Shown: one piece after another, positions 2,973-63,488 of the stretch
How positions within the stretch are numbered: the stretch's first letter is position 1
How the letters are laid out: every line of letters starts with the position of its first letter
Source of the DNA: a bacterium
Lineage (GTDB): Bacteria > Patescibacteriota > Minisyncoccia > Phycocordibacterales > UBA6899
DNA length: 64,000 nucleotides
Direction of reading: 5' to 3'
NCBI GenBank assembly: GCA_043756865.1
Contig: JAYUQG010000005.1
Coordinates: 40,614 to 104,613 of the forward strand
The notes under the pieces: model-generated
What the model was told of the DNA's origin: nothing
The model's input: the letters and a program-made list of their open reading frames with translations, nothing else
Database searches by the model: none
Program-made: the position numbers and the translations under genes

Positions 2973-5900
2973 ATGTTCAACAATATAATCTCGTGGTCAC
3001 TTAGAAATAAGCTTGTCGTGCTACTCACAACATTCCTGATTGTTGTTTTTGGTACATGGAGTTTACTCACCATGAAGGTGGATATTCTTCCTGATATCAA
3101 CAAACCTACCGTTACTATCTTTGCAGAAGGCGAAGGAATGGCGAGCGAAGAAGTAGAGAGACTAATCCTCACCCCTATTGAAGCAGCAGTCGCGGGCGCT
3201 CCGGGGGTCGAACGTATTCGCGGAAGTGCAGCACTCGGTCGCGCGATTGTTAACCTAGAGTTTGCATGGGGTTCTGACAATTATCGGAACAGACAAATCG
3301 TGCAGGAAAGGTTGACCCAAGTGGTACTCCCGAGCAACGTCACACCCGTACTTGGCCCCCAATCTTCACTCCTTGGAGAAGTGGTCTGGGTCGGACTGAC
3401 TTCAAGTAGCGCTGCGGTTTCTGCAATGGAAATGCGTACAATAGCAGATTTCACGGTCCGTCCCGCACTTCTCAAAATCCCCGGTGTTTCCACAGTGCTT
3501 GTGATGGGTGGCGACGTGCGCGAGTGGCAGATTAATCTCAATGCGGAACGCATGCGTCAGAGTGGTGTCATGTTCGAAGATGTGCGGAAAAACATTGCTT
3601 CAGCCATCACGAATAAGGGCGGCGGTATTCTTGCTGAGAACGGAAAAGAATATCCCATTCGCATTCTTGTTGCACCCAAGGACATTGCCGAACTTCGCGA
3701 GATCGCAGTCGGAAGAGGTATGTCAACAGGTGCAGTCATCCGCTTGGCTGACCTCGCAGAAGTTATCGAAGGACCAAGCCCAGTACGTGGCTCTGCTGCG
3801 ATCAATGGAAAACCGGGGGTCATTCTGCGGGTCATTCGCCAGTCTGACGCAGAGACCTTGAAAATAACCAAAGGGATCGATGAGACATTGGACGCGCTTC
3901 GGCCGGCAATCCCCGAAGGTGTTCTGATTGAAGGAGATCTTTTTCGACAAGAACAATTCATCCATGCAGGACTAGGAAATGTCACCGAAGCGCTTCGCGA
4001 TGGAACAATTCTTGTTGTGCTCATTCTGCTTATTTTTCTCATGAACGTACGCACGACTGCGATCACACTCACGGCTATTCCGCTTTCGATACTCGTCACG
4101 GCGATCATATTTAAGCAATTTGGGCTCTCGGTGAATGTGATGACGCTCGGTGGAATTGCCGTTGCTGTAGGCGAACTTGTGGATGATGCAATCGTAGGGG
4201 TCGAGAACGTGTTTCAGCGACTGCGACTCTGGAAGAAAACAGGCGCAAAAGAAGATCGGGAAGCAGTGGTGCTTTCCGCTTCCAGTGAAGTGCGCAACTC
4301 GATAGTGTATGCAACCATTCTCGTTGCGGTGGTCTTTCTTCCTATTTTCTTTGTGCCCGGTCTTGAAGGGAGATTAATTGCATCGATTGGCGCGGCATAC
4401 CTCGTTTCTCTGCTTGCCTCTATGCTCGTTTCACTTACTGTAACCCCCGTTCTCTCAGCGCTCTTGCTTCATGGTAAAACACTGGAGGGACACGAAGAAG
4501 AAACGCGATTAGTACGTGCGATCAAAGAGTGGATGTCTCCGCGCATATATTGGTGCATTGCCCGCGTGCGGTTTGTCGGTACGCTTACACTCATTGCACT
4601 TTCGCTTACTGCTGGGATGTACTTGTTTGCAGGCAAGGAAGGTATCCCAACGTTCAACGAAGGCTCCGCCACGGTTATGGCATTTACTCCTGTCGGAACT
4701 GATCTGGCGACAACCAATGCATATGTAGCAAAAGTCGCCAAGGAAATTGAAAAAGTTCCTGGCGTGGCAAAAGTATCGAACATGACCGGTAGGGCGGATG
4801 CAGACCCTCATGATGGAGGTTCGAATGCGAGTGAGATGCAAATTCTTATAAAACCAGAATACATTCCCCATCGCGTGCAGGTCTTCAAGAACATTCAAAA
4901 AGTACTTTCACGTCATGACGGAGCGGATTTTGGCCTTGGGCAACCGATCACTCATCGTATGCAGGAATTACTCTCTGGAGTACGTGCACCGATCGCGATC
5001 AAGGTATTTGGGGACGACCTCGAAGACATGAAAAATGCCGCCGATCGAGTTATTCTTGAGCTAAAAAAACAGCCCGGTGTAAAAAATGCGCAAATCGGGA
5101 AAGATACGATGACTCCAGAATTCCATATCTATCTCGATCGCAATCGACTCGCTGAATCAGGAATTTCATCTGGCGAGGTCGCTCTGGAACTTGAAATGGG
5201 GCTCATGGGCGATACGCTTGGACAAATGCGTCTTGGCGGAGCATCTGTGGATGTCGTTGCGAGGTTCGATCTGGAGTCTAAAGGCACCATGGCGTCGCTT
5301 CGTGACATCGCTTTGTCATTTGAGAACGTGACATCGCTCGGTCTTGCGGGGGATGTCACGGTCGCAGGTGGGCGCAATCGTTACACTCACGAAGCGGGCA
5401 AGCGAGTATTGGTTGTGTCGGCAAATTATGAGGGCAAAGATGTTGTCGGTGCAGTCGAGAATGTAAAATCAGCACTTGATAATGAAAAGTTACAGAGTGG
5501 AGTGACACTGTCCTATGAGGGAACATACAAAAGCCAGAAAGAAAGCTCACGCCGCCTTTCGCTTGTCTTTGTTTTGGGAATAGCAATGATCTTCGGCATT
5601 CTGTATCATGCATTTAAATCCGTACCCATCGTGCTGCTCATCATGGCAAACATTCCAACCGTGCTCATCGGCGGAATGATCGGAATATGGCTCACTGGCG
5701 GAGTAGTCAATCTTGCGCATCTCGTCGGATTCATATCGCTTGCGGGAATCGTATCGCGAAATGGGATCATGCTTATCGGACGAGTGCTCACGCTTGTTCG
5801 CGAAGGAAATGCATTCACTCCGGAAACAATCGTGCGTGCCACACTTGATCGCGTTACTCCGGTACTTATGACTTCTCTTGTCACAGCACTCGCGCTCATA

Positions 5901-11683: not shown

Positions 11684-12044
11684 TGTGGGCGATAGAGGAA
11701 TGTCGACCCTTACAGGGTCAGTACCCCTTTCACCACGGAGAGTGCTTTATTTTTCTAAGACGGAGTACCGTTAAGAAAAATTAGTCGCCCATTTTTACAG
11801 ATTAGGAAATCCTTAAAAATATGGGAGAAGGGCTTCGACTCCTCTGGCAAAAGCCAAGCAGTTTTGGGGGAGTCGGTCACGAGTCACTAAGTTTTTTAGC
11901 GCAAAGCCTAACTAAAAAACAAAGTGCTCTCGACCCCGGCTCGCCATCTCGCCAGGCCTCGATATTGGCTTGCGCCTTTCGACTCCTCTATCGCACGCAC
12001 AATGGAAAAGCAAAAGCACTCCTACGGAGTGCTTTTAGCCATTG
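11684..12044. repeat. composite tRNA-linked repeat: degenerate copy of the tRNA-Val 3' end, a tac-loop hairpin + CAGTACCCCTTTC, spacer, ATATGGGAGAAGGGCTTCGACTCC box, gcag-loop hairpin, long inverted repeat
   Basis: Blocks shared with copies at 45440-45756, 46190-46437, 50598-50690, 51601-52281 and 63170-63404. Confidence 0.6.
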
Positions 12045-12117
12045 TGGGCGATAGAGGAGTCGAACCTCTGACATCCACTACGTCAAAGTGGCGCTCTACC
12101 AACTGAGCTAACCGCCC
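12045..12117 (-). tRNA. tRNA-Val (anticodon GAC), no encoded CCA
   Basis: Manual fold: acceptor GGGCGGT/ATCGCCC, D-arm GCTCAGTTGGTAGAGC, anticodon loop TTGACGT, T-arm AGAGG-TTCGACT-CCTCT. Confidence 0.85.
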
Positions 12118-12125
12118 AACTTTTT

Positions 12126-12233
12126 AGAACGTACTTATGCTTCCACGCGTTACCTACCAAAACAGCATAACCGCCTATTTTCAGAACATGCCTATGCTTT
12201 CACGCGTTGCGTACTAAAACAGCATAACTGCCC
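12126..12233. repeat. two tandem ~51-bp direct repeats immediately upstream of tRNA-Val (possible duplicated promoter)
   Basis: agaacgtacttatgcttccacgcgttacctaccaaaacagcataaccgcc repeated with about 80% identity. Confidence 0.5.
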
Positions 12234-24253: not shown

Positions 24254-24324
24254 AATCCATGAATATTTTAAATTTGAGTGAAATTCGAGACGCGGGGAAA
24301 GTAACGAGGAAGGCATATTCATAT

Positions 24325-24390
24325 ATGGTGACCGAGTTACTGGGGTCCCGCAACAAAGAAGTTCGCCAAATTCAGAATATTCATATATGA
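24325..24390 (+). CDS. 21-aa small ORF (MVTELLGSRNKEVRQIQNIHI) whose stop overlaps the pth ATG (ATGA)
   Basis: GAGGAAGG Shine-Dalgarno 8 nt upstream; conserved second copy at 26107-26160. Confidence 0.3.
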   Translation: MVTELLGSRNKEVRQIQNIHI

Positions 24391-26036: not shown

Positions 26037-26106
26037 TTTATAGGATTTGCAAAAACAGACGAAATTCGAGGCATCGGGGAAGGGGGCGAGGAAGGCATAT
26101 TCATAT

Positions 26107-26160
26107 ATGGTGACCGAGCCACAGGGGCCCCGCAACGAAGAAGTTCGCCTGTTTTTGTGA
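26107..26160 (+). CDS. 17-aa small ORF (MVTEPQGPRNEEVRLFL), paralog of 24325-24390
   Basis: Identical RBS and upstream block; followed by a terminator hairpin. Confidence 0.3.
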   Translation: MVTEPQGPRNEEVRLFL

Positions 26161-27718: not shown

Positions 27719-27817
27719 ACACAAATGTTATCAGCAGAGCGTACCAAATGAAAGTGTCATGCGTAATCACCGCTGTGCACGGGGAATAGAAAAGGGACCC
27801 TGTGGGGGTCCCCGTTG

Positions 27818-28585: not shown

Positions 28586-29731
28586 TTACGCCTTTTTTTC
28601 AATTGGCGTACCAAATGAAAGTGTCATGCGCTGATCCTTTGGCTCAAAGAGCGTAATGGAGAACGGATAGACCTTGCCGAGCTCGAGCGCGGTGCGGAGC
28701 TTCTCCTCGGTGCCAAACTCTGACACGTGGACAAGACCTGCAACGCCCTCCTCGATAGATGCGAGTGCGCCGTACTTGTTGAACTTGATGATAACGCCTT
28801 TCACGGAGTCACCCTTCTTGTACTTCTTCTCAGCACCCTTCCATGGGTTCTCCTTTAGTACCTTCACCGAAAGCGACACCTTGTTATCCTTGATTTCAAT
28901 AATTTGTGCCTTCACGCGCTCACCAATCTTGAAGAGTTTACGTGGATCGTCAACGAGTCCCCAGTCCATTTCAGAGATATGAATGAGTCCCTCGAGACCT
29001 TCTTCAATCTTCATGAATGCGCCGAAGTCCACGATGCCTGTGATGTCGCCTTCGACAATCGAGCCCATGCGATACTTCGCGACAATTTCCTCCTTCTCTT
29101 TCTGGTTGTGCTCTTTCTCAGAGAAAATAAGTTTGCCCTCTTTTGGAACTGCAGTAATCATGACGACCTGAAGCTTTACTCCAACGAGGCGTTTTAGTTC
29201 TTCAAGAATCTTGTCTTTGTCACCGTCTTCAACGCGAGGATAGTGGTCGCCTGAAAGCTGTGATGCGGGAAGAAACCCCGAGATGCCCTGCCAATCAAGA
29301 ATGAGTCCACCCTTGTTTGCGTCTTTGACAGGAAGATCAAGAATTGTCTTCTTCTTTACATATTCTTCTGCTTCGCCCCAGATAAGGGACTGGCGAGCCT
29401 CCTTGAGTGAGAGTTCGACGTAACCGTCATCATTCTCGCTCTCGACTACCTTTGCGGTAATCACATCTCCCACATTCATGTGCTTGATGAGATCGCGCGC
29501 GTTCATGTACTCGCGTCCGTAAATGATGCCGACACCAAAAGGAGGCATGTTTACAAACACGGCCTTCTTGTCGACTTTGAGCACTGGTCCTTCGACGATT
29601 TCTCCGGGGTCAGGACGCTTTACTATTTCCGTCATGAACTTCGCCATCACGTGATCTGGAGAGGGGATATTCTCCGCTCCAACAATGATGACCTCTTCTT
29701 CTTCTGCTGTATCTACTGTTGCTGTAGCCAT
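28586..29731 (-). CDS. rpsA: 30S ribosomal protein S1 (four S1 domains)
   Basis: Repeated S1-domain cores (GDVITAKV..., GSIVEGDITGIVDFGAFMKI..., GDSVKGVIIKFNKYGALASI...). Confidence 0.85.
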   Translation of the reverse strand: MATATVDTAEEEEVIIVGAENIPSPDHVMAKFMTEIVKRPDPGEIVEGPVLKVDKKAVFVNMPPFGVGIIYGREYMNARDLIKHMNVGDVITAKVVESENDDGYVELSLKEARQSLIWGEAEEYVKKKTILDLPVKDANKGGLILDWQGISGFLPASQLSGDHYPRVEDGDKDKILEELKRLVGVKLQVVMITAVPKEGKLIFSEKEHNQKEKEEIVAKYRMGSIVEGDITGIVDFGAFMKIEEGLEGLIHISEMDWGLVDDPRKLFKIGERVKAQIIEIKDNKVSLSVKVLKENPWKGAEKKYKKGDSVKGVIIKFNKYGALASIEEGVAGLVHVSEFGTEEKLRTALELGKVYPFSITLFEPKDQRMTLSFGTPIEKKA

Positions 29732-45439: not shown

Positions 45440-45756
45440 CTAATTTTTTTTCTTGTACAGACAAAAAATGTAAGTGTTCGCAACCCCACAGCGCTGTTTC
45501 GCGTGCTCGCGAAACAGCGCTGTGGTTCACAATATCGAGGGAGGACTAGGTCACAAGTCACTAAGTCTTGTGACTCACTTCGTGAGCCAAAAGCAAAGTG
45601 CTCGCGACCCTTACAGGGTTTGTACACCTTGTTGGTTTTCTCAAAATGGGAATTTCTCGAAAACATCGTCAAGGTCTTCAAGTCCTCTCGCGAAAGTGCA
45701 GCCAAGCACCTTCTCTGGGCACAATGCAAAAATCCCTTCTGGGGATTTTTGCATTG
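45440..45756. repeat. composite tRNA-linked repeat/hairpin region downstream of tRNA-Leu(TAG)
   Basis: 18-bp hairpin ccacagcgctgtttcgcg/cgcgaaacagcgctgtgg; gtcacaagtcactaag block; cccttacagggt block; degenerate GGGCTTCGACTCC box; 22-bp hairpin ctgggcacaatgcaaaaatccc/ggggatttttgcattgtgcccag that includes the tRNA 3' end. Confidence 0.55.
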
Positions 45757-45838
45757 TGCCCAGGAGAGGACTTGAACCTCCACCTCTTGCGAGACCAGTT
45801 CCTAAGACTGGCGCGGCTACCAATTACGCCACCTGGGC
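45757..45838 (-). tRNA. tRNA-Leu (anticodon TAG), long variable arm, no encoded CCA
   Basis: Manual fold: acceptor GCCCAGG/CCTGGGC, anticodon stem-loop CCAGT-CTTAGGA-ACTGG, T-arm GGAGG-TTCAAGT-CCTCT. Confidence 0.8.
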
Positions 45839-46189: not shown

Positions 46190-46437
46190 TTTTTGCAACC
46201 TTCACCCAGCTGCATCCTCGGCTCCCGCAGTGGGCATTCGGGCTTTGGTCACAAGTCACTAGATTTCGGCAGGAATTTCGGTCATTACATGACCAGTACC
46301 CGTTTCCCATTTCTTCGTGATATGAATCACTCACAAATATGGGAGAACGGCTTCGAATCCTGCCAGAAGTGCCGCAGGGCACTTCTTCGGGGGCACACAT
46401 AACAAAAAAACTGCCAAAGCAGTTTTTTTGTTATGTG
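46190..46437. repeat. composite tRNA-linked repeat downstream of tRNA-Lys
   Basis: ggtcacaagtcactag block; ggtcattacatgacc hairpin + AGTACCCGTTTCCCAT; ATATGGGAGAACGGCTTCGAATCC box; gaagtgcc-gcag-ggcacttc hairpin; 27-bp hairpin including the tRNA 3' end. Confidence 0.6.
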
Positions 46438-46510
46438 TGCCCCCGGCAGGATTCGAACCTGCGACCGTCTCGTTAAGAGCGAGCTGCTCTACCAACTGAG
46501 CTACGAAGGC
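46438..46510 (-). tRNA. tRNA-Lys (anticodon CTT), no encoded CCA
   Basis: Manual fold: acceptor GCCTTCG/CGGGGGC (two G-U pairs), anticodon loop CTCTTAA, T-arm GCAGG-TTCGAAT-CCTGC. Confidence 0.8.
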
Positions 46511-50597: not shown

Positions 50598-50690
50598 GGA
50601 GCTCGACTCCCGTAAGGAAGCAAAGCAATTTGCTGTTCTCGGAAACATTACACAAAAACTCCTAATGGAGTTTTTGTGCTATCTCCGTTT
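50598..50690. repeat. short copy of the tRNA-linked repeat (GAGCTCGACTCCC box, gcaa-loop hairpin, acacaaaaactcc/ggagtttttgtg hairpin) acting as a terminator for the upstream gene
   Basis: Same blocks as the tRNA-adjacent copies but no tRNA follows. Confidence 0.5.
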
Positions 50691-51504: not shown

Positions 51505-51600
51505 ACTGTGGATTTCTATCGCGACCTGTAAAAACTGCTTATCATTTTTCGTATTAGTATTTTAGCAGTCATCTGTTGCACAAATCAAAACTTCCTTTCC

Positions 51601-52281
51601 ATACATAGCACAAAAACTCCTTCGGGAGTTTTTGTGCTATGTGTTGAGGGCAGGAGGTTCGACCCTTACGGGGTCAGTACCCCTTTCCCATCTTGTCGCA
51701 CTTTCTGAAAAGTACGACAAGATACGGGAGAAGGGCTTCGACTCCCACCACGAAAGCCAATCAGTATGTCGGGGTGGAGTCTCGGCTGCCGCCGCGGGTG
51801 GATTTCGATTTCGGGGTACCACAAGGGCATTTCCATTTTTCTAGAGGAATACCTCTAAGTAAAATTGGTCACTCAATAACGAAATCCCTTTCGACTTCCG
51901 TACGCAGGCAAGCATTTGCCTGCTCCCGGGCACGTCATTCCATGGTCACGAGTTTCTAAATCTTTTGTTGCTGAGACGCACAAAAGCTTAAGAACTCTCG
52001 ACCCCACCTCGCGGTTTCTGAAAAGTCTGGAAGACAACTTTTCAAAAACATTGCTGTGGTTCACAAACGCTAAAACTCTCCCGCAGGGGAGAGTTTCTCG
52101 ACGCGTTTGTGCCCGGGGCGGGAGATTCGACCCTTACAGGGTCAGTACCCCTTTCCCATTTATTCTGGATAAGAATCCTTCATAAATATGGGAGAAGGGC
52201 TTCGACTCCCACCTCGAAAGCCAAGCAGTTGGCTTTCTCCGGCACTTAACACAAAAACTCCCAAAGGAGTTTTTGTGTTAA
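51601..52281. repeat. array of degenerate tRNA-trailer repeat units downstream of tRNA-Leu(TAA): two complete units, each with a pseudo tRNA 3' end
   Basis: Unit order on plus: 18-23-bp A-tract/T-tract hairpin, revcomp tRNA 3' end or degenerate copy (gggcaggaggttcgaccc; gcccggggcgggagattcgaccc), tac-hairpin + CAGTACCCCTTTCCCAT, spacer, ATA(T/C)GGGAGAAGGGCTTCGACTCCC, gaaagccaa-gcag-ttggctttc hairpin. Confidence 0.6.
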
Positions 52282-52362
52282 GTGCCCGGGGCGGGAGTCG
52301 AACCCGCATGCCTTTCGACGGGAGATTTTAAGTCTCCTGTGTATACCATTTCACCACCCGGG
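52282..52362 (-). tRNA. tRNA-Leu (anticodon TAA), long variable arm, no encoded CCA
   Basis: Manual fold: acceptor GCCCGGG/CCCGGGC, anticodon stem-loop AGGAG-ACTTAAA-TCTCC region, T-arm GCGGG-TTCGACT-CCCGC. Confidence 0.8.
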
Positions 52363-52474
52363 CGTGGAATTACTATAATCTTTTTTTGAACGATGAGGAA
52401 GAAGCATGCTTGCACTTCACGGCATCACGCGCTAGCGTAAAGGAAGTAAACCTTGAGTACTGAAAGGAAGTGCT

Positions 52475-52873: not shown

Positions 52874-52945
52874 AGGCGTAGACCGGAATCGAACCGGTGC
52901 ATGGCAGTTTTGCAGACTGCAGTGTTACCACTTCACCACTACGCC
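52874..52945 (-). tRNA. tRNA-Cys (anticodon GCA), discriminator U, no encoded CCA
   Basis: Manual fold: acceptor GGCGTAG/CTACGCC, anticodon stem-loop GCAGT-CTGCAAA-ACTGC, T-arm ACCGG-TTCGATT-CCGGT. Confidence 0.75.
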
Positions 52946-53109
52946 ATTTGAAAATATTAGCACAAACCTTGGCTCAACTTGAGCACTTAACCGCAAACAC
53001 AATGTGGGAACATGAAGTGTTACTCGAGATCGACCTCGAAGGTATTGCGGAGAGGGCGAGTTGTGCATTGCGTCCGCGGGGGCGGACACTACTTCGAGAA
53101 AGCCAACCA

Positions 53110-53155
53110 TGGCGTCTGGCTTTGCAGACTTGGCTTACCACTTCACCACTACGCC
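53110..53155 (-). pseudogene. partial duplicate of the tRNA-Cys 5' half (acceptor 5' strand, D-arm and CTGCAAA loop) lacking a T-arm
   Basis: GGCGTAGTGGTGAAGTGGTAA is identical to the functional copy 210 nt upstream; the remainder diverges. Confidence 0.5.
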
Positions 53156-53179
53156 ATGTGGGACAATATAACAGCTTTT

Positions 53180-53525: not shown

Positions 53526-55031
53526 TTACTGCTTTCTTACGGTGATGTAGGGTATCAAGACATCCCTTTCTGCTAAAGTAAACTTCGATTCAACTTGGAG
53601 TCCGCATTCGTTACCCTCGATAACCTCGTCAACTTTTATCTTTTGTGACTGTAGCTCAGTTATTCTGCCTTCACCGATATACGCATCGCGACGCATGATT
53701 TTGAATCGCGCTCCTGCGGTTATCTTTCCTGCGAGGACTTTGCCACCGATGACCTGCTTTTCTTTTTGCTGACTGAAATAGCGGATGATACGAAATTGAC
53801 CTAATTCCTCTTCCATTTCAATGTGTGGCGCACGCGTAAGCATTTCTGCTTGGAGCCATTCGGTGAGTTTGTAGATGATGTCAAACGTGTGGATGGTTAT
53901 GTTTGAACGTGAGGCTAAATCTTGAGCTAGAGAATCTGCTTTGGTGTGAAATGCCAACACGATAGGGGACGAGGCACCAATTGCAACCTTTATGTCGTTT
54001 TCGGATATAGAACCTACACCCTTTTGAATAAGCTTGAACTTTATACGCTCGTGTTTGAGCTTTTCAAGCTCGTGCTCAATTGCTTCGAGGGTGCCCGCAA
54101 CGTCAGTGCGGAGAATGAGCGGGATAACTACGAAGCCTTCGTATGAGACCGGGGCGGGGGCGTTTTTTGCGCTGCTCTTGTTGTACTCAGCGACAGCGGC
54201 CTCGGCACTTTTCTTGTCGGTAAACGATGAAACCTTTGAACCAACCGCGGGGATTTTGTCCCAACCGGTAATGCGAATTGGGGAAGAAAACGTAGCACCA
54301 TCAACTGCTTTGCCGACAAAATTTTCCACCACGCGAACGGGAGCTAGTGCGCCATCGGCCACGACGAACATGCCTTTGGTGATGGTGCCATCTGTAATAA
54401 CCATAGATGCCGTAGTCCCTTTCTTGGGATCCATGCGTGATTCGATAACGACACCTTCAGCATTCTTTGCAGAGTCTCCAGTGAGTTCACCCATTTCCGC
54501 AAGCAAGAGCATCACGTCGAGCAAGTCTGGTATACCCTGACCGGTTTTAGCTGATATAGCCACCCAAGGCACATCGCCACCGTATCCCTCTACATATATC
54601 TCAGCCTCAGCCAGTGTTTGCTTTGTGCGTTCGATATTAGCGTTCGGCTTGTCGATTTTATTGATAGCTACAATGTATGGCACTGCAGCCTCTTTGATTG
54701 AGCGATGTGCTTCAATAGTCTGTGCCTTTACTCCATCTTCAGCAGAAACTACAAGTACGGCAATGTCGGCAACTTTCGCACCCCTTCCGCGCATGCCTCT
54801 AAACGCTTCATGGCCAGGGGTATCGAGAAAAGTAATGCGTCGCTCCTCTCCCTTGTCGTTCTTGTGAACTGCTTCATATGCGGAAATATGTTGTGTAATG
54901 CCACCAGCCTCAGTTGCAACGACGTTTGTTTTTCTAATATAGTCTAAAAGCGTCGACTTTCCGTGGTCGATGTGTCCCATAATAGCAACGATGGGGGGGC
55001 GCGGAGTGATTTTTTGCGGTTTCGTAGCCAT
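53526..55031 (-). CDS. infB: translation initiation factor IF-2, short form (G domain to C-terminus only)
   Basis: G1 GHIDHGKST; DTPGH; NKID; C-terminal beta-barrels. Confidence 0.9.
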   Translation of the reverse strand: MATKPQKITPRPPIVAIMGHIDHGKSTLLDYIRKTNVVATEAGGITQHISAYEAVHKNDKGEERRITFLDTPGHEAFRGMRGRGAKVADIAVLVVSAEDGVKAQTIEAHRSIKEAAVPYIVAINKIDKPNANIERTKQTLAEAEIYVEGYGGDVPWVAISAKTGQGIPDLLDVMLLLAEMGELTGDSAKNAEGVVIESRMDPKKGTTASMVITDGTITKGMFVVADGALAPVRVVENFVGKAVDGATFSSPIRITGWDKIPAVGSKVSSFTDKKSAEAAVAEYNKSSAKNAPAPVSYEGFVVIPLILRTDVAGTLEAIEHELEKLKHERIKFKLIQKGVGSISENDIKVAIGASSPIVLAFHTKADSLAQDLASRSNITIHTFDIIYKLTEWLQAEMLTRAPHIEMEEELGQFRIIRYFSQQKEKQVIGGKVLAGKITAGARFKIMRRDAYIGEGRITELQSQKIKVDEVIEGNECGLQVESKFTLAERDVLIPYITVRKQ

Positions 55032-63169: not shown

Positions 63170-63404
63170 GTGTCAATTACTCGTAAATAGGGAAGAAGGG
63201 CTTCGAATCCAGTCGGGACTAAAGCAGGGCAGGAGTTTCTTCCATTACATGGACGGTACACCCTTCGTATCTCACTTCACTTGCGGACAAGCTTGTTGCG
63301 ATATACTCAGGGTCTTCGAATCCTGCACGAAAGTGCTTCAGAGCACTTTCTCCTACGCACCGACAAAAACGGCACCCCTTGCAGGGTGCTCGTTTTTGTT
63401 TCGG
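63170..63404. repeat. composite tRNA-linked repeat downstream of tRNA-Tyr
   Basis: ATAGGGAAGAAGGGCTTCGAATCC box; second GGGTCTTCGAATCCTGC box; gcacgaaagtgc hairpin; 25-bp hairpin ctacgcaccgacaaaaacggcaccc/agggtgctcgtttttgtttcggtgcgtagg including the tRNA 3' end. Confidence 0.6.
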
Positions 63405-63488
63405 TGCGTAGGGCAGGATTCGAACCTGCGAAGCCCATAGGACGACAGATTTACAGTCTGTTGCGATTGACCACTCCGCCACCTACGC
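63405..63488 (-). tRNA. tRNA-Tyr (anticodon GTA), long variable arm, no encoded CCA
   Basis: Manual fold: acceptor GCGTAGG/CCTACGC, anticodon stem-loop ACAGA-CTGTAAA-TCTGT, T-arm GCAGG-TTCGAAT-CCTGC. Confidence 0.8.

Follow-up and report, generated by a model that had tools for sequence, protein, structure and literature searches.

A folded element with arms copied from the neighboring tRNA gene in candidate phyla radiation bacteria

Introduction

Much of bacterial diversity belongs to the candidate phyla radiation (CPR), whose members have streamlined genomes and an RNA biology that is still poorly understood. We analyzed 64,000 nucleotides (nt) of DNA from one such ultra-small, Parcubacteria-like bacterium (GenBank assembly GCA_043756865.1, contig JAYUQG010000005.1, positions 40,614 to 104,613 of the forward strand), referred to here as the window, in which a tail element of ~150 bases follows five of the six tRNA genes. 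The original prediction, made from the letters of the window, described a composite interspersed repeat whose blocks, (a) to (f), occur in a fixed order in tRNA 3′ flanks, and read it mainly as tandemly duplicated tRNA genes and trailers in which the upstream tRNA bodies had decayed. Here, we describe the anatomy, distribution, and conservation of this element and weigh the explanations for it.

Results

The element-bearing tRNA genes called by ARAGORN all lie on the minus strand (Val at 12044, Leu-UAG at 45756, Lys at 46437, Leu-UAA at 52282, and Tyr at 63403), and tRNA-Cys carries no unit. That an ordered composite repeat is tied to the 3′ flanks of these genes was borne out, as its blocks occur far beyond chance: block (d) (GGGAGAAGGGCTTCGACTCC) had five matches with ≤3 mismatches and block (b) (CGACCCTTACAGGGTCAGTACCCC) had four, relative to 0 expected for each from shuffled sequence. 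An unbiased repeat search of the window returned the same families (D1 to D5 and D8). The covariance model R1, which was built from the copies of relatives and then run on the window and all loci, identified six full cores (Val, Leu-UAG, Lys, two at Leu-UAA, and Tyr), all on the minus strand; three scored 112, 111, and 91 bits, and the other three scored 55, 54, and 50 bits (Table 1). At least seven copies had been predicted; besides the six full cores, the window contains two partial or truncated units, namely, the predicted copy at 50598-50690 and the duplicated (d) box at 63180-63212.

Relatives were searched with a (d)-box scan of one genome per species, followed by a metagenome scan. The former produced ~30 true copies, with the other matches being chance occurrences in coding sequence, and the latter contributed 80 further loci. 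Across all loci, R1 returned 156 matches, of which 126 were distinct copies in genome and metagenome contigs; the family is widespread. All named genomes with copies belong to the CPR/Patescibacteria (Lloydbacteria, Taylorbacteria, Paceibacterota, and Saccharibacteria). A same-strand tRNA was present ≤1,200 nt upstream of 84 of the 126 distinct elements, with 60 of these 84 lying at a distance of 23 to 83 nt (mode, 70) and a second group at 170 to 210 nt; 19 of the 42 elements without such a tRNA sit at a contig edge. Twenty-three tRNA species carry elements. Within the sampled loci, an element was present at 79 of 108 tRNAs (Ser, 25/26; Tyr, 7/8; Lys, 6/7; Ile, 0/3; Arg, 2/9), counts that are biased by how the loci were gathered.

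Some units without a detected upstream tRNA (L009, L020, L075, L118, and L131) are preceded at ~60 to 100 nt by a recurrent, odd 3′-end-like sequence (GGTTCTAAC..CGTCTA.. and then an acceptor-like strand). This sequence has no Rfam match and might represent a tRNA 3′ end that is degenerate or unusual.

The natural reading of the unit, which measures ~150 to 200 nt, is on the strand of the tRNA, i.e., the minus strand of the window. It begins a few bases past the tRNA's own intrinsic terminator and comprises five segments. The first is the Watson-Crick antisense of the tRNA acceptor 3′ strand and is often extended through the discriminator and trailer, thereby lengthening the terminator hairpin. 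The second is hairpin (e), which usually has 8 to 9 bp and often a CUGC loop. A hairpin of 8 to 11 bp was found at this position in 89 of 118 elements, 38 of them with the CUGC loop; the control for this test was too lenient, so that only the distribution of stem lengths is informative. The third segment complements the 3′ strand of the T-stem together with the T-loop, and the fourth is the core, in which a long stem B (containing a bulged C, a bulge of 2 nt, tandem G·A pairs, and a variable tip) is followed by the junction GUACUG and a short hairpin C with a Y-GUA-R loop. The fifth begins with (C/A)GAA and two variable bases (often AU, AC, or UC) and repeats, in sense orientation, the 3′ part of the T-loop and the T-stem 3′ strand, to which the acceptor 3′ strand and discriminator may be added; another terminator usually trails it. 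Since segments 3 and 5 pair with each other (stem A), the unit folds as a three-way junction, which rests on a helix resembling the acceptor/T arm of a tRNA.

This anatomy changes the meaning of several predicted blocks. Block (f), the A-tract/T-tract hairpin, is the tRNA's own terminator (H0), and this design behind the tRNA recurs in related loci. Block (d) had been taken for a degenerate T-loop; instead, it joins the 5′ strand of stem B to the complement of the neighbor's T-loop and T-stem 3′ strand. Block (a) is indeed a copy of a tRNA 3′ end, albeit a sense copy of the last quarter only, and the whole decayed tRNA that was envisaged was never seen. The 25- to 90-nt spacer, block (c), forms the tip of stem B, which is variable, and part of block (b) also belongs to this stem. 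Terminators were read from the sequences, given that a simple scan misses them by counting the T-tract as stem; H0 and the hairpin behind the unit both consist of a GC-rich hairpin and a directly following T-tract, as intrinsic terminators do, which accounts for part of the unit only.

A second type of module (GGAKTCGAAAG ... GGGGTCGMGAG ... TTAGTGACTYGTGACCGAMTCC) occurs inside the same T-arm-like bracket. Type 2 shares the three-way topology of type 1, with a T-arm-like closing stem and two inner arms, but its arms differ from those of type 1, and it may adjoin, precede, or be fused to a type 1 unit.

The arms of the units track the adjacent tRNA. The longest exact run shared by the 3′ region of an element and the 3′ end of its own tRNA had a median length of 10 nt (maximum, 25), relative to 5 nt for mismatched tRNAs. 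The UCGAAG at the 5′ junction is not constant and corresponds to the antisense of the neighbor's T-loop, with unusual T-loops being mirrored in it (TTCAAGT by CTTGAA, TTCGATT by AATCGAA, TTCGACT by AGTCGAA, and GATT by GGAATCGAA). In 48 of 59 first units, the segment before (e) is complementary to at least six of the seven bases of the acceptor 3′ strand; where the acceptor stem contains G·U pairs, 15 cases agree with the complement of the 3′ strand and 1 with the 5′ strand of the tRNA. At least one sense copy lies downstream of 32 of the 57 element-bearing tRNAs, and none lies upstream. One tRNA that encodes CCA is followed by a sense copy that also ends in CCA (L111), and in another locus (L005), the repeats remain identical over the first 9 nt of the trailer, diverge past that point, and are followed by different terminators. 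The element's own copy of the acceptor 3′ strand is intact in only ~28% of units, and 32 of 115 have an acceptor-like stem with ≥6 of 7 pairs. Taken together, these data indicate that a unit consists of one antisense and one sense copy of tRNA positions ~54 to 73 (and beyond), placed around (e) and the B-C insert.

The predicted structure is supported by covariation. In 25 diverse copies, 94.9% of cells were paired, relative to 76.9% in shuffles and 41 to 56% with slid partners, and 21 of 32 pairs exhibited compensatory changes. This abundance of compensatory changes agrees with the earlier claim that blocks (d) and (e) are kept beyond neutral decay. The Leu-UAA unit alone folds as modeled (single-sequence fold, −66.7 kcal/mol; z = −6.2), and minus-strand folds are more stable than plus-strand folds by 3 to 7 kcal/mol. 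Within predicted pairs, G·U exceeded A·C by 114 to 66 overall (P = 4e-4), an excess that stems from the tip of stem B (43:10) and from stem A (50:31). When the tRNA and its unit were folded together, the minimum-energy folds of all four units examined paired the 3′ quarter of the tRNA with the antisense arm, at the loss of the acceptor stem; two mutually exclusive pairings are therefore possible on paper. In the Leu-UAA fold, the 5′ strands of the tRNA then pair with the downstream sense copy.

The units are also conserved at equivalent loci. The coding DNA of the window is ~74% identical to that of the Lloydbacteria genome MHLM01, and the tRNA order is common to both. The equivalent Lys and Tyr cores are 89 to 90% identical (Lys, 90%; L001), hairpin (e) is 96% identical at the Lys loci, and the tRNAs are 95 to 100% identical, such that the folded element is conserved nearly as well as the tRNA itself. 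In contrast, the 100 nt on either side of these units are 55 to 63% identical, with random sequence giving 58%. Since the cores are this similar while their flanks are at the random level, the units at equivalent loci are under purifying selection. They combine covariation-supported structure, strand asymmetry, and purifying selection, as a conserved structured noncoding RNA would.

Copies within a genome had a median identity of 0.64, relative to 0.71 between genomes, which rules out a recent burst or within-genome homogenization. In 18 of 78 cases, a copy and its nearest neighbor shared the tRNA species, relative to 5.1 expected.

The array attached to tRNA-Leu(UAA) shows how units accumulate (51601-52281, minus strand): the gene is followed by its terminator, a complete type 1 unit, a terminator-like palindrome, the 3′ half of a type 2 module, a partly decayed type 1 unit, and a terminator. 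One terminator type (family D4) is used throughout the array from 50.6 to 52.3 kb, at the far end of which a partial unit (50598-50682), without a B-C core as judged by R1, forms the 3′ end of a protein-coding gene. A public contig that is 99.9% identical to this region (L157; Logan SRR22198344_1739) ends exactly where tRNA-Leu(UAA) meets its terminator, window position 52282, which suggests that element arrays break short-read assemblies.

Related loci show similar arrangements. The core and truncated second unit of tRNA-Tyr recur in L010 and L088, and L111 carries a perfect tandem copy of a whole unit. In L139, the tRNA order is that of the window, but the stem B variants at Leu-UAA, Lys, and Leu-UAG are exchanged, and the arrays end in several decaying copies of tRNA 3′ ends with type 2 remnants interleaved. 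In L125 (1380-1598), a Ser-type antisense arm, a core, a Lys-type sense copy, and a truncated (e) are followed by a second unit with a Lys-type antisense arm, a core, and a Ser-like sense copy; the arrangement suggests recombination of a circular Lys-type unit into a Ser-type unit via the shared core. Empty antisense-loop-sense hairpins, a sign of excision or insertion of B-C, were not found at 120 tRNAs, and near-identical contigs showed no unit-number polymorphism.

Table 1. Features of the units and arrays (window positions unless a related locus is named)
Feature	Position	Strand	Evidence or remark
tRNA-Leu(UAA), gene to which the array is attached	52282-52363	-	ARAGORN; Rfam tRNA model, 59 bits
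Block (f), terminator hairpin H0 (A-tract/GC stem/T-tract); stem enters last tRNA bases	52243-52284	-	Sequence
Antisense acceptor 3′ strand, GTGCCGG, lacking one C and one G of the full complement	52239-52245	-	Sequence
Hairpin (e), GAAAGCCAA-CUGC-UUGGCUUUC	52216-52237	-	Sequence, fold
Type 1 core, unit 1 (Leu-UAA)	52114-52213	-	R1, 110.7 bits
Unit 1, stem A 5′ strand and antisense T-loop	52200-52213	-	
Unit 1, stem B	52148-52199	-	
Unit 1, UACUG, the 3′ five bases of GUACUG	52143-52147	-	G of GUACUG is last base of stem B interval
Unit 1, hairpin C, GUA loop	52130-52142	-	
Unit 1, sense copy (T-loop 3′ part, T-stem and acceptor 3′ strands, discriminator)	52109-52129	-	
Second terminator-like palindrome, past sense copy	52062-52111	-	Sequence
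Type 2 module, 3′ half (GGGGTCGAGAG...TTAGAAACTCGTGACC), between both type 1 units	51944-52005	-	
Type 1 core, unit 2 ("orphan"), partly decayed	51646-51749	-	R1, 91 bits
Unit 2, (e) remnant	51751-51765	-	
Unit 2, decayed sense copy	51641-51661	-	
Third terminator hairpin, copy of block (f)	51603-51643	-	Repeat family D4
Partial unit: same-type terminator, (e)-like hairpin, short T-arm-like hairpin GGGAG-TCGAG-CTCC	50598-50682	-	Sequence
tRNA-Lys(CUU) unit	46265-46439	-	Terminator 46394-46439, antisense acceptor 46388-46396, (e) 46366-46385, core 46265-46364; R1, 112 bits
tRNA-Leu(UAG) unit	45540-45758	-	Terminator 45720-45758, antisense acceptor 45715-45722, (e) 45692-45713; R1, 50 bits
tRNA-Leu(UAG) unit, core with variant stem B	45591-45689	-	Fused to type 2 3′ half reaching ~45540
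tRNA-Val(GAC) unit	11684-12046	-	Terminator 11998-12046, uninterrupted antisense copy 11976-11996, type 2 module 11869-11975; R1, 55 bits
tRNA-Val(GAC) unit, (e)-like hairpin	11848-11866	-	
tRNA-Val(GAC) unit, type 1 core	11690-11846	-	57-nt insert in stem B
tRNA-Val(GAC) unit, sense copy	11684-11705	-	
tRNA-Tyr(GUA) unit	63180-63406	-	Terminator 63358-63406, antisense acceptor 63352-63360, (e) 63329-63350; R1, 54 bits
tRNA-Tyr(GUA) unit, core with Tyr-type stem B	63225-63327	-	
tRNA-Tyr(GUA) unit, truncated second unit	63180-63212	-	
Type 2 modules in window	11869-11975, 51944-52005, 45540-45600, 46244-46261		
Type 2 modules in related loci	L056 2512-2639, L061 3147-3259, L095 3405-3543, L136 4216-4320		

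Known families were searched for a match to the element. No Rfam family but tRNA reached its gathering score in the window, and a permissive scan of 51560-52300 (E ≤ 10) returned only chance hairpins. A tRNA or tRNA pseudogene was rejected: only the six true tRNAs were called, the elements had no tRNA match at E ≤ 10, and those in 16 related loci had none at the gathering score. The RNA families described in Rfam 15, including ribozymes, YrlA, viral tRNA-like structures, and T-boxes, yielded only microRNA-type chance hairpins far below gathering, and the junction did not fit the hammerhead core CUGANGA / GAAA when compared by eye. A small open reading frame (ORF) was rejected as well; ATGGGAAAGGGGTACTGA would encode MGKGY, but the stop is lost in TACTGC/TACTGG variants, and the stems vary by compensatory changes. 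Full-text literature searches found no description of the element.

Mobile relatives and protein partners were also sought. In viral contigs, the first search pattern had no matches and the second had two, which were due to chance (no hairpin C and no tRNA nearby), so that a viral origin was rejected; no true copy was found in phage or plasmid collections. When 790 ORFs at ≤2.5 kb were clustered, no family occurred in more than seven loci, and the top neighbor families were judged housekeeping-like by eye, without a Pfam run. No tnpA or tnpB was found near any copy in the flanks of the element loci. The gap between two units of L043 contains a 184-amino-acid ORF that is Nudix-like by eye (no Pfam run), and no recombinase was apparent there. 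A short motif, GCGCTCGAGACGC / CGCGTCGAG, flanks this ORF (L043, 2660-2675 and 3285-3300) and recurs near elements in the window (52090-52100), L027, L146, and L150.

Discussion

The units share one architecture, covary as a structure, carry arms that track the adjacent tRNA, share its strand and lie 3′ of it, and, among named sources, occur only in CPR genomes. The purifying selection, the covariation, and the sense-strand G·U bias suggest that they are functional structured elements, most likely RNA, that serve the adjacent tRNA gene. We tentatively favor a structured RNA that acts as a cis accessory of this gene, with a function that we infer; this is close to one alternative of the original prediction, a structured-RNA element that targets tRNA 3′ flanks. 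The RNA of the unit would be made by read-through or processing of the tRNA transcript. Its antisense arm would then have two possible partners, namely, the 3′ quarter plus trailer of the same pre-tRNA and the element's internal decoy copy, and the conserved surfaces of (e), B, and C might, as pure conjecture, provide a docking platform for a protein or RNase in tRNA 3′-end formation or surveillance. The arms would probably be kept identical to the tRNA by templated copying, i.e., by conversion between direct repeats and palindrome halves, and arrays would grow by tandem duplication and core exchange between loci while distal copies decay. Were the RNA to pair with this pre-tRNA, a so far undescribed step in tRNA 3′-end formation or quality control would be implied.

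Several observations weigh against a cis-acting RNA. The unit starts past an apparently genuine terminator, so that its transcription needs read-through or a promoter (none was identified). The G·U excess is modest and limited to stem A and the tip of stem B, with no excess in stem C, lower stem B, or the terminator stem (12:9). The antisense acceptor arm is strictly Watson-Crick, which DNA-templated copying explains no less well than selection on RNA does, and since the element's own acceptor copy is intact in only a minority of units, a complete tRNA-like acceptor stem is not required. The stem B swaps, mixed module types, and decaying distal copies are the turnover expected of a mobile or recombining element, and the arms of the unit pair in L125 derive from two different tRNAs. 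Lastly, both the protein partner and the function proposed here come from inference alone.

The main rival, which we consider unlikely but serious, is a small nonautonomous integrative or recombining DNA element modeled on tRNA-targeting islands. Such an element would insert at the T-loop and supply a replacement 3′ quarter and terminator, with the displaced original quarter persisting as the sense copy; the antisense copy would let a single strand mimic the target duplex, and B-C and (e) would be sites for a recombinase acting in trans. In favor of this scheme, the direct repeat derived from the tRNA 3′ end starts within the T-loop and is found downstream and never upstream, and the L005 repeats run 9 nt into the trailer before their terminators differ. 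Arrays of mixed modules with degraded distal copies, stem B swaps between equivalent loci, the apparent recombination of a circular Lys-type unit into a Ser-type unit in L125, the perfectly Watson-Crick antisense arm, and a fold that sets a duplex copy of the target beside the core all point in the same direction. The Watson-Crick arm, T-loop direct repeat, mixed and decaying arrays, and swapped cores therefore keep this explanation alive. Nevertheless, neither an integrase, a transposase, nor a recurrent gene lies within 2.5 kb of the elements, the viral contigs, phages, and plasmids searched contain no true copy, and neither empty sites nor differences in unit number among near-identical contigs were seen. 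Within-genome copies are old and divergent, and the cores are under strong purifying selection amid randomized flanks, whereas inserted nonautonomous copies should decay. To our knowledge, no mechanism re-specifies both arms for 23 different tRNAs. If the element were mobile, it would be among the smallest integrative elements known and would show how an element re-templates its targeting arms.

Comparison with described DNA elements bears on the same question. As with the attachment (att) repeats found at tRNAs, the repeated tRNA 3′ end starts in the T-loop, repeats can stack downstream, and the functional tRNA keeps an intact 3′ end with its own terminator. The units differ in being only ~150 to 200 nt long without integrase or cargo, in always containing an antisense copy, and in having, between the two copies, a conserved and covarying core that is under purifying selection at equivalent loci. 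A classical att scar was rejected, since no recurrent protein family (integrase or cargo) lies nearby and there were no viral, phage, or plasmid copies, even though the tRNA 3′ end is directly repeated as in such scars. A folded single-strand site of the CTX phage attP(+) or integron attC type resembles the units in that inverted target copies fold to imitate a duplex target, with tandem arrays and extrahelical branches; however, a tRNA T-loop would take the place of dif or attI as the target, the duplex is confined to one half-site, and no recombinase was found near the copies.

The units further resemble REP/BIME, ERIC, Correia/NEMIS, BOX, and IS200/IS605-derived PATE elements, which are likewise small, noncoding, hairpin forming, modular in their variants, located beside terminators, and without a transposase of their own. 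Unlike these, the units have arms that copy the neighboring tRNA rather than fixed terminal repeats, produce no target-site duplication, are confined to tRNA 3′ flanks rather than dispersed, and are old within a genome (median identity, 64%). PATEs have subterminal hairpins and insert 3′ of a fixed target of 4 to 5 nt; hairpins B and C of the units do abut TCGAA and CGAA, but the left-hand "target" varies with the T-loop of the tRNA (CTTGAA at Leu-UAG). A miniature inverted-repeat transposable element (MITE) was rejected, given that the arms differ at every tRNA and equal that tRNA's own sequence and that within-genome copies have a median identity of 0.64.

It is quite improbable that the unit is an independent small RNA built like the upper half of a tRNA (acceptor stem and T arm, with an elaborated elbow), which would be released by RNase P and RNase Z, receive a CCA end, and perhaps be charged or act as a decoy for factors binding the acceptor/T arm of the tRNA. 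Full copies such as that at Leu-UAA do have an acceptor-like stem, (e) in the place of the D/anticodon arms, and a T-stem-like stem A, and the Leu-UAA copy ends in the discriminator and trailing bases of the tRNA. A copy also ends in CCA where its tRNA encodes CCA (L111), and a terminator trails the unit. However, the acceptor-like stem (≥6 of 7 pairs) is restricted to 32 of 115 units and is absent from the conserved Lys and Tyr units, and the 5′ strand has further pairs with the discriminator and trailer, unlike that of a tRNA. Known tRNA mimics (the tmRNA domain, YrlA, viral tRNA-like structures, and mascRNA) resemble the units in having an acceptor/T-arm-like coaxial helix, a T-loop-derived motif, and a tRNA-identical 3′ end; the units differ from them in failing the Rfam tRNA, YrlA, and viral tRNA-like models, in the usually incomplete acceptor stem, in the two-hairpin insert in the T-loop, and in a sequence that is customized for each neighboring tRNA.

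Even less probable is a by-product of DNA replication or a composite terminator, in which snap-back or template-switch replication at the terminator hairpin and T-arm palindrome creates a "tandem inversion duplication" of the tRNA 3′ end and the resulting hairpin stack is kept as an insulator that shields adjacent genes from strong tRNA transcription. Tandem inversion duplications and templated palindrome correction would account for the sense-antisense-sense order, the hairpins at both junctions, and the strictly Watson-Crick antisense arm; the lack of G·U excess in the terminator stem, the serial terminators, and the partial unit that forms the 3′ end of a protein-coding gene also fit. Left unexplained are (e), B, GUACUG, and C, non-tRNA sequences that lie exactly at the junctions, are common to 23 tRNA species, and are conserved across genomes, as are invariant bases in bulges and loops that simple termination does not need.

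The anatomy contradicts tandem duplication of whole tRNA genes with their trailers and decay of the upstream bodies, the primary reading of the original prediction, to which we assign next to no probability. Local tandem duplication does occur, as the unit copy in L111 and the like D4 terminators of the 50.6- to 52.3-kb array attest; what is duplicated, however, is never a whole tRNA gene. The 126 copies contain no trace of a D or anticodon arm, only the 3′ quarter from T-loop to discriminator (positions ~54 to 73) is copied, one of the two copies is antisense, and the same non-tRNA core lies beside unrelated tRNAs.

Since the units fail the defining tests of tRNAs, of all Rfam families, of MITEs, and of classical att scars, we class them with tRNA-derived structured elements, as a new variant. 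That they are categorically new seems rather doubtful. We would give similarly little weight to a broader scheme in which each tRNA gene has a self-templated "guard," whose guide-like arms are copied from the 3′ quarter and kept matched by conversion. This guard might be an RNA switch that reads or controls the pre-tRNA 3′ end through strand exchange between tRNA and decoy, or a minimal, protein-less, replicon-like unit, excised as a dumbbell-shaped circle that reenters tRNA genes; either mode, if true, would be a tRNA-linked genetic element of a kind not described before. Whether RNA or mobile DNA, the element accounts for recurrent noncoding DNA and assembly breaks beside CPR tRNA genes, and R1 is a covariance model ready for use in annotating tRNA-tail elements.

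Other features of the window and related loci

Directly 5′ of tRNA-Val, a 57-nt sequence is repeated in tandem with 84% identity (12121-12175 and 12178-12232) and may represent a duplicated promoter or leader. A 26-nt copy of the 5′ end of tRNA-Cys, 96% identical, lies 210 nt upstream of that gene (52925-52950 and 53135-53160); unlike the 3′-end copies in the elements, this stray copy is a 5′ fragment. IF-2 (53526-55031) is only 501 amino acids long, and six of nine ORFs tested had no Pfam match, both of which are consistent with a CPR genome. Other repeats in the window include a 75-nt pair with 88% identity located 1.8 kb apart (24293-24367 and 26075-26149) and a perfect 25-nt pair separated by 867 nt (27739-27763 and 28606-28630). 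LOOT RNA (Rfam RF03000) occurs in two element loci without adjoining the elements: L131 has a 73-bit match at 3668-3788, and L009 has a truncated 41-bit match at a contig edge (3125-3209).

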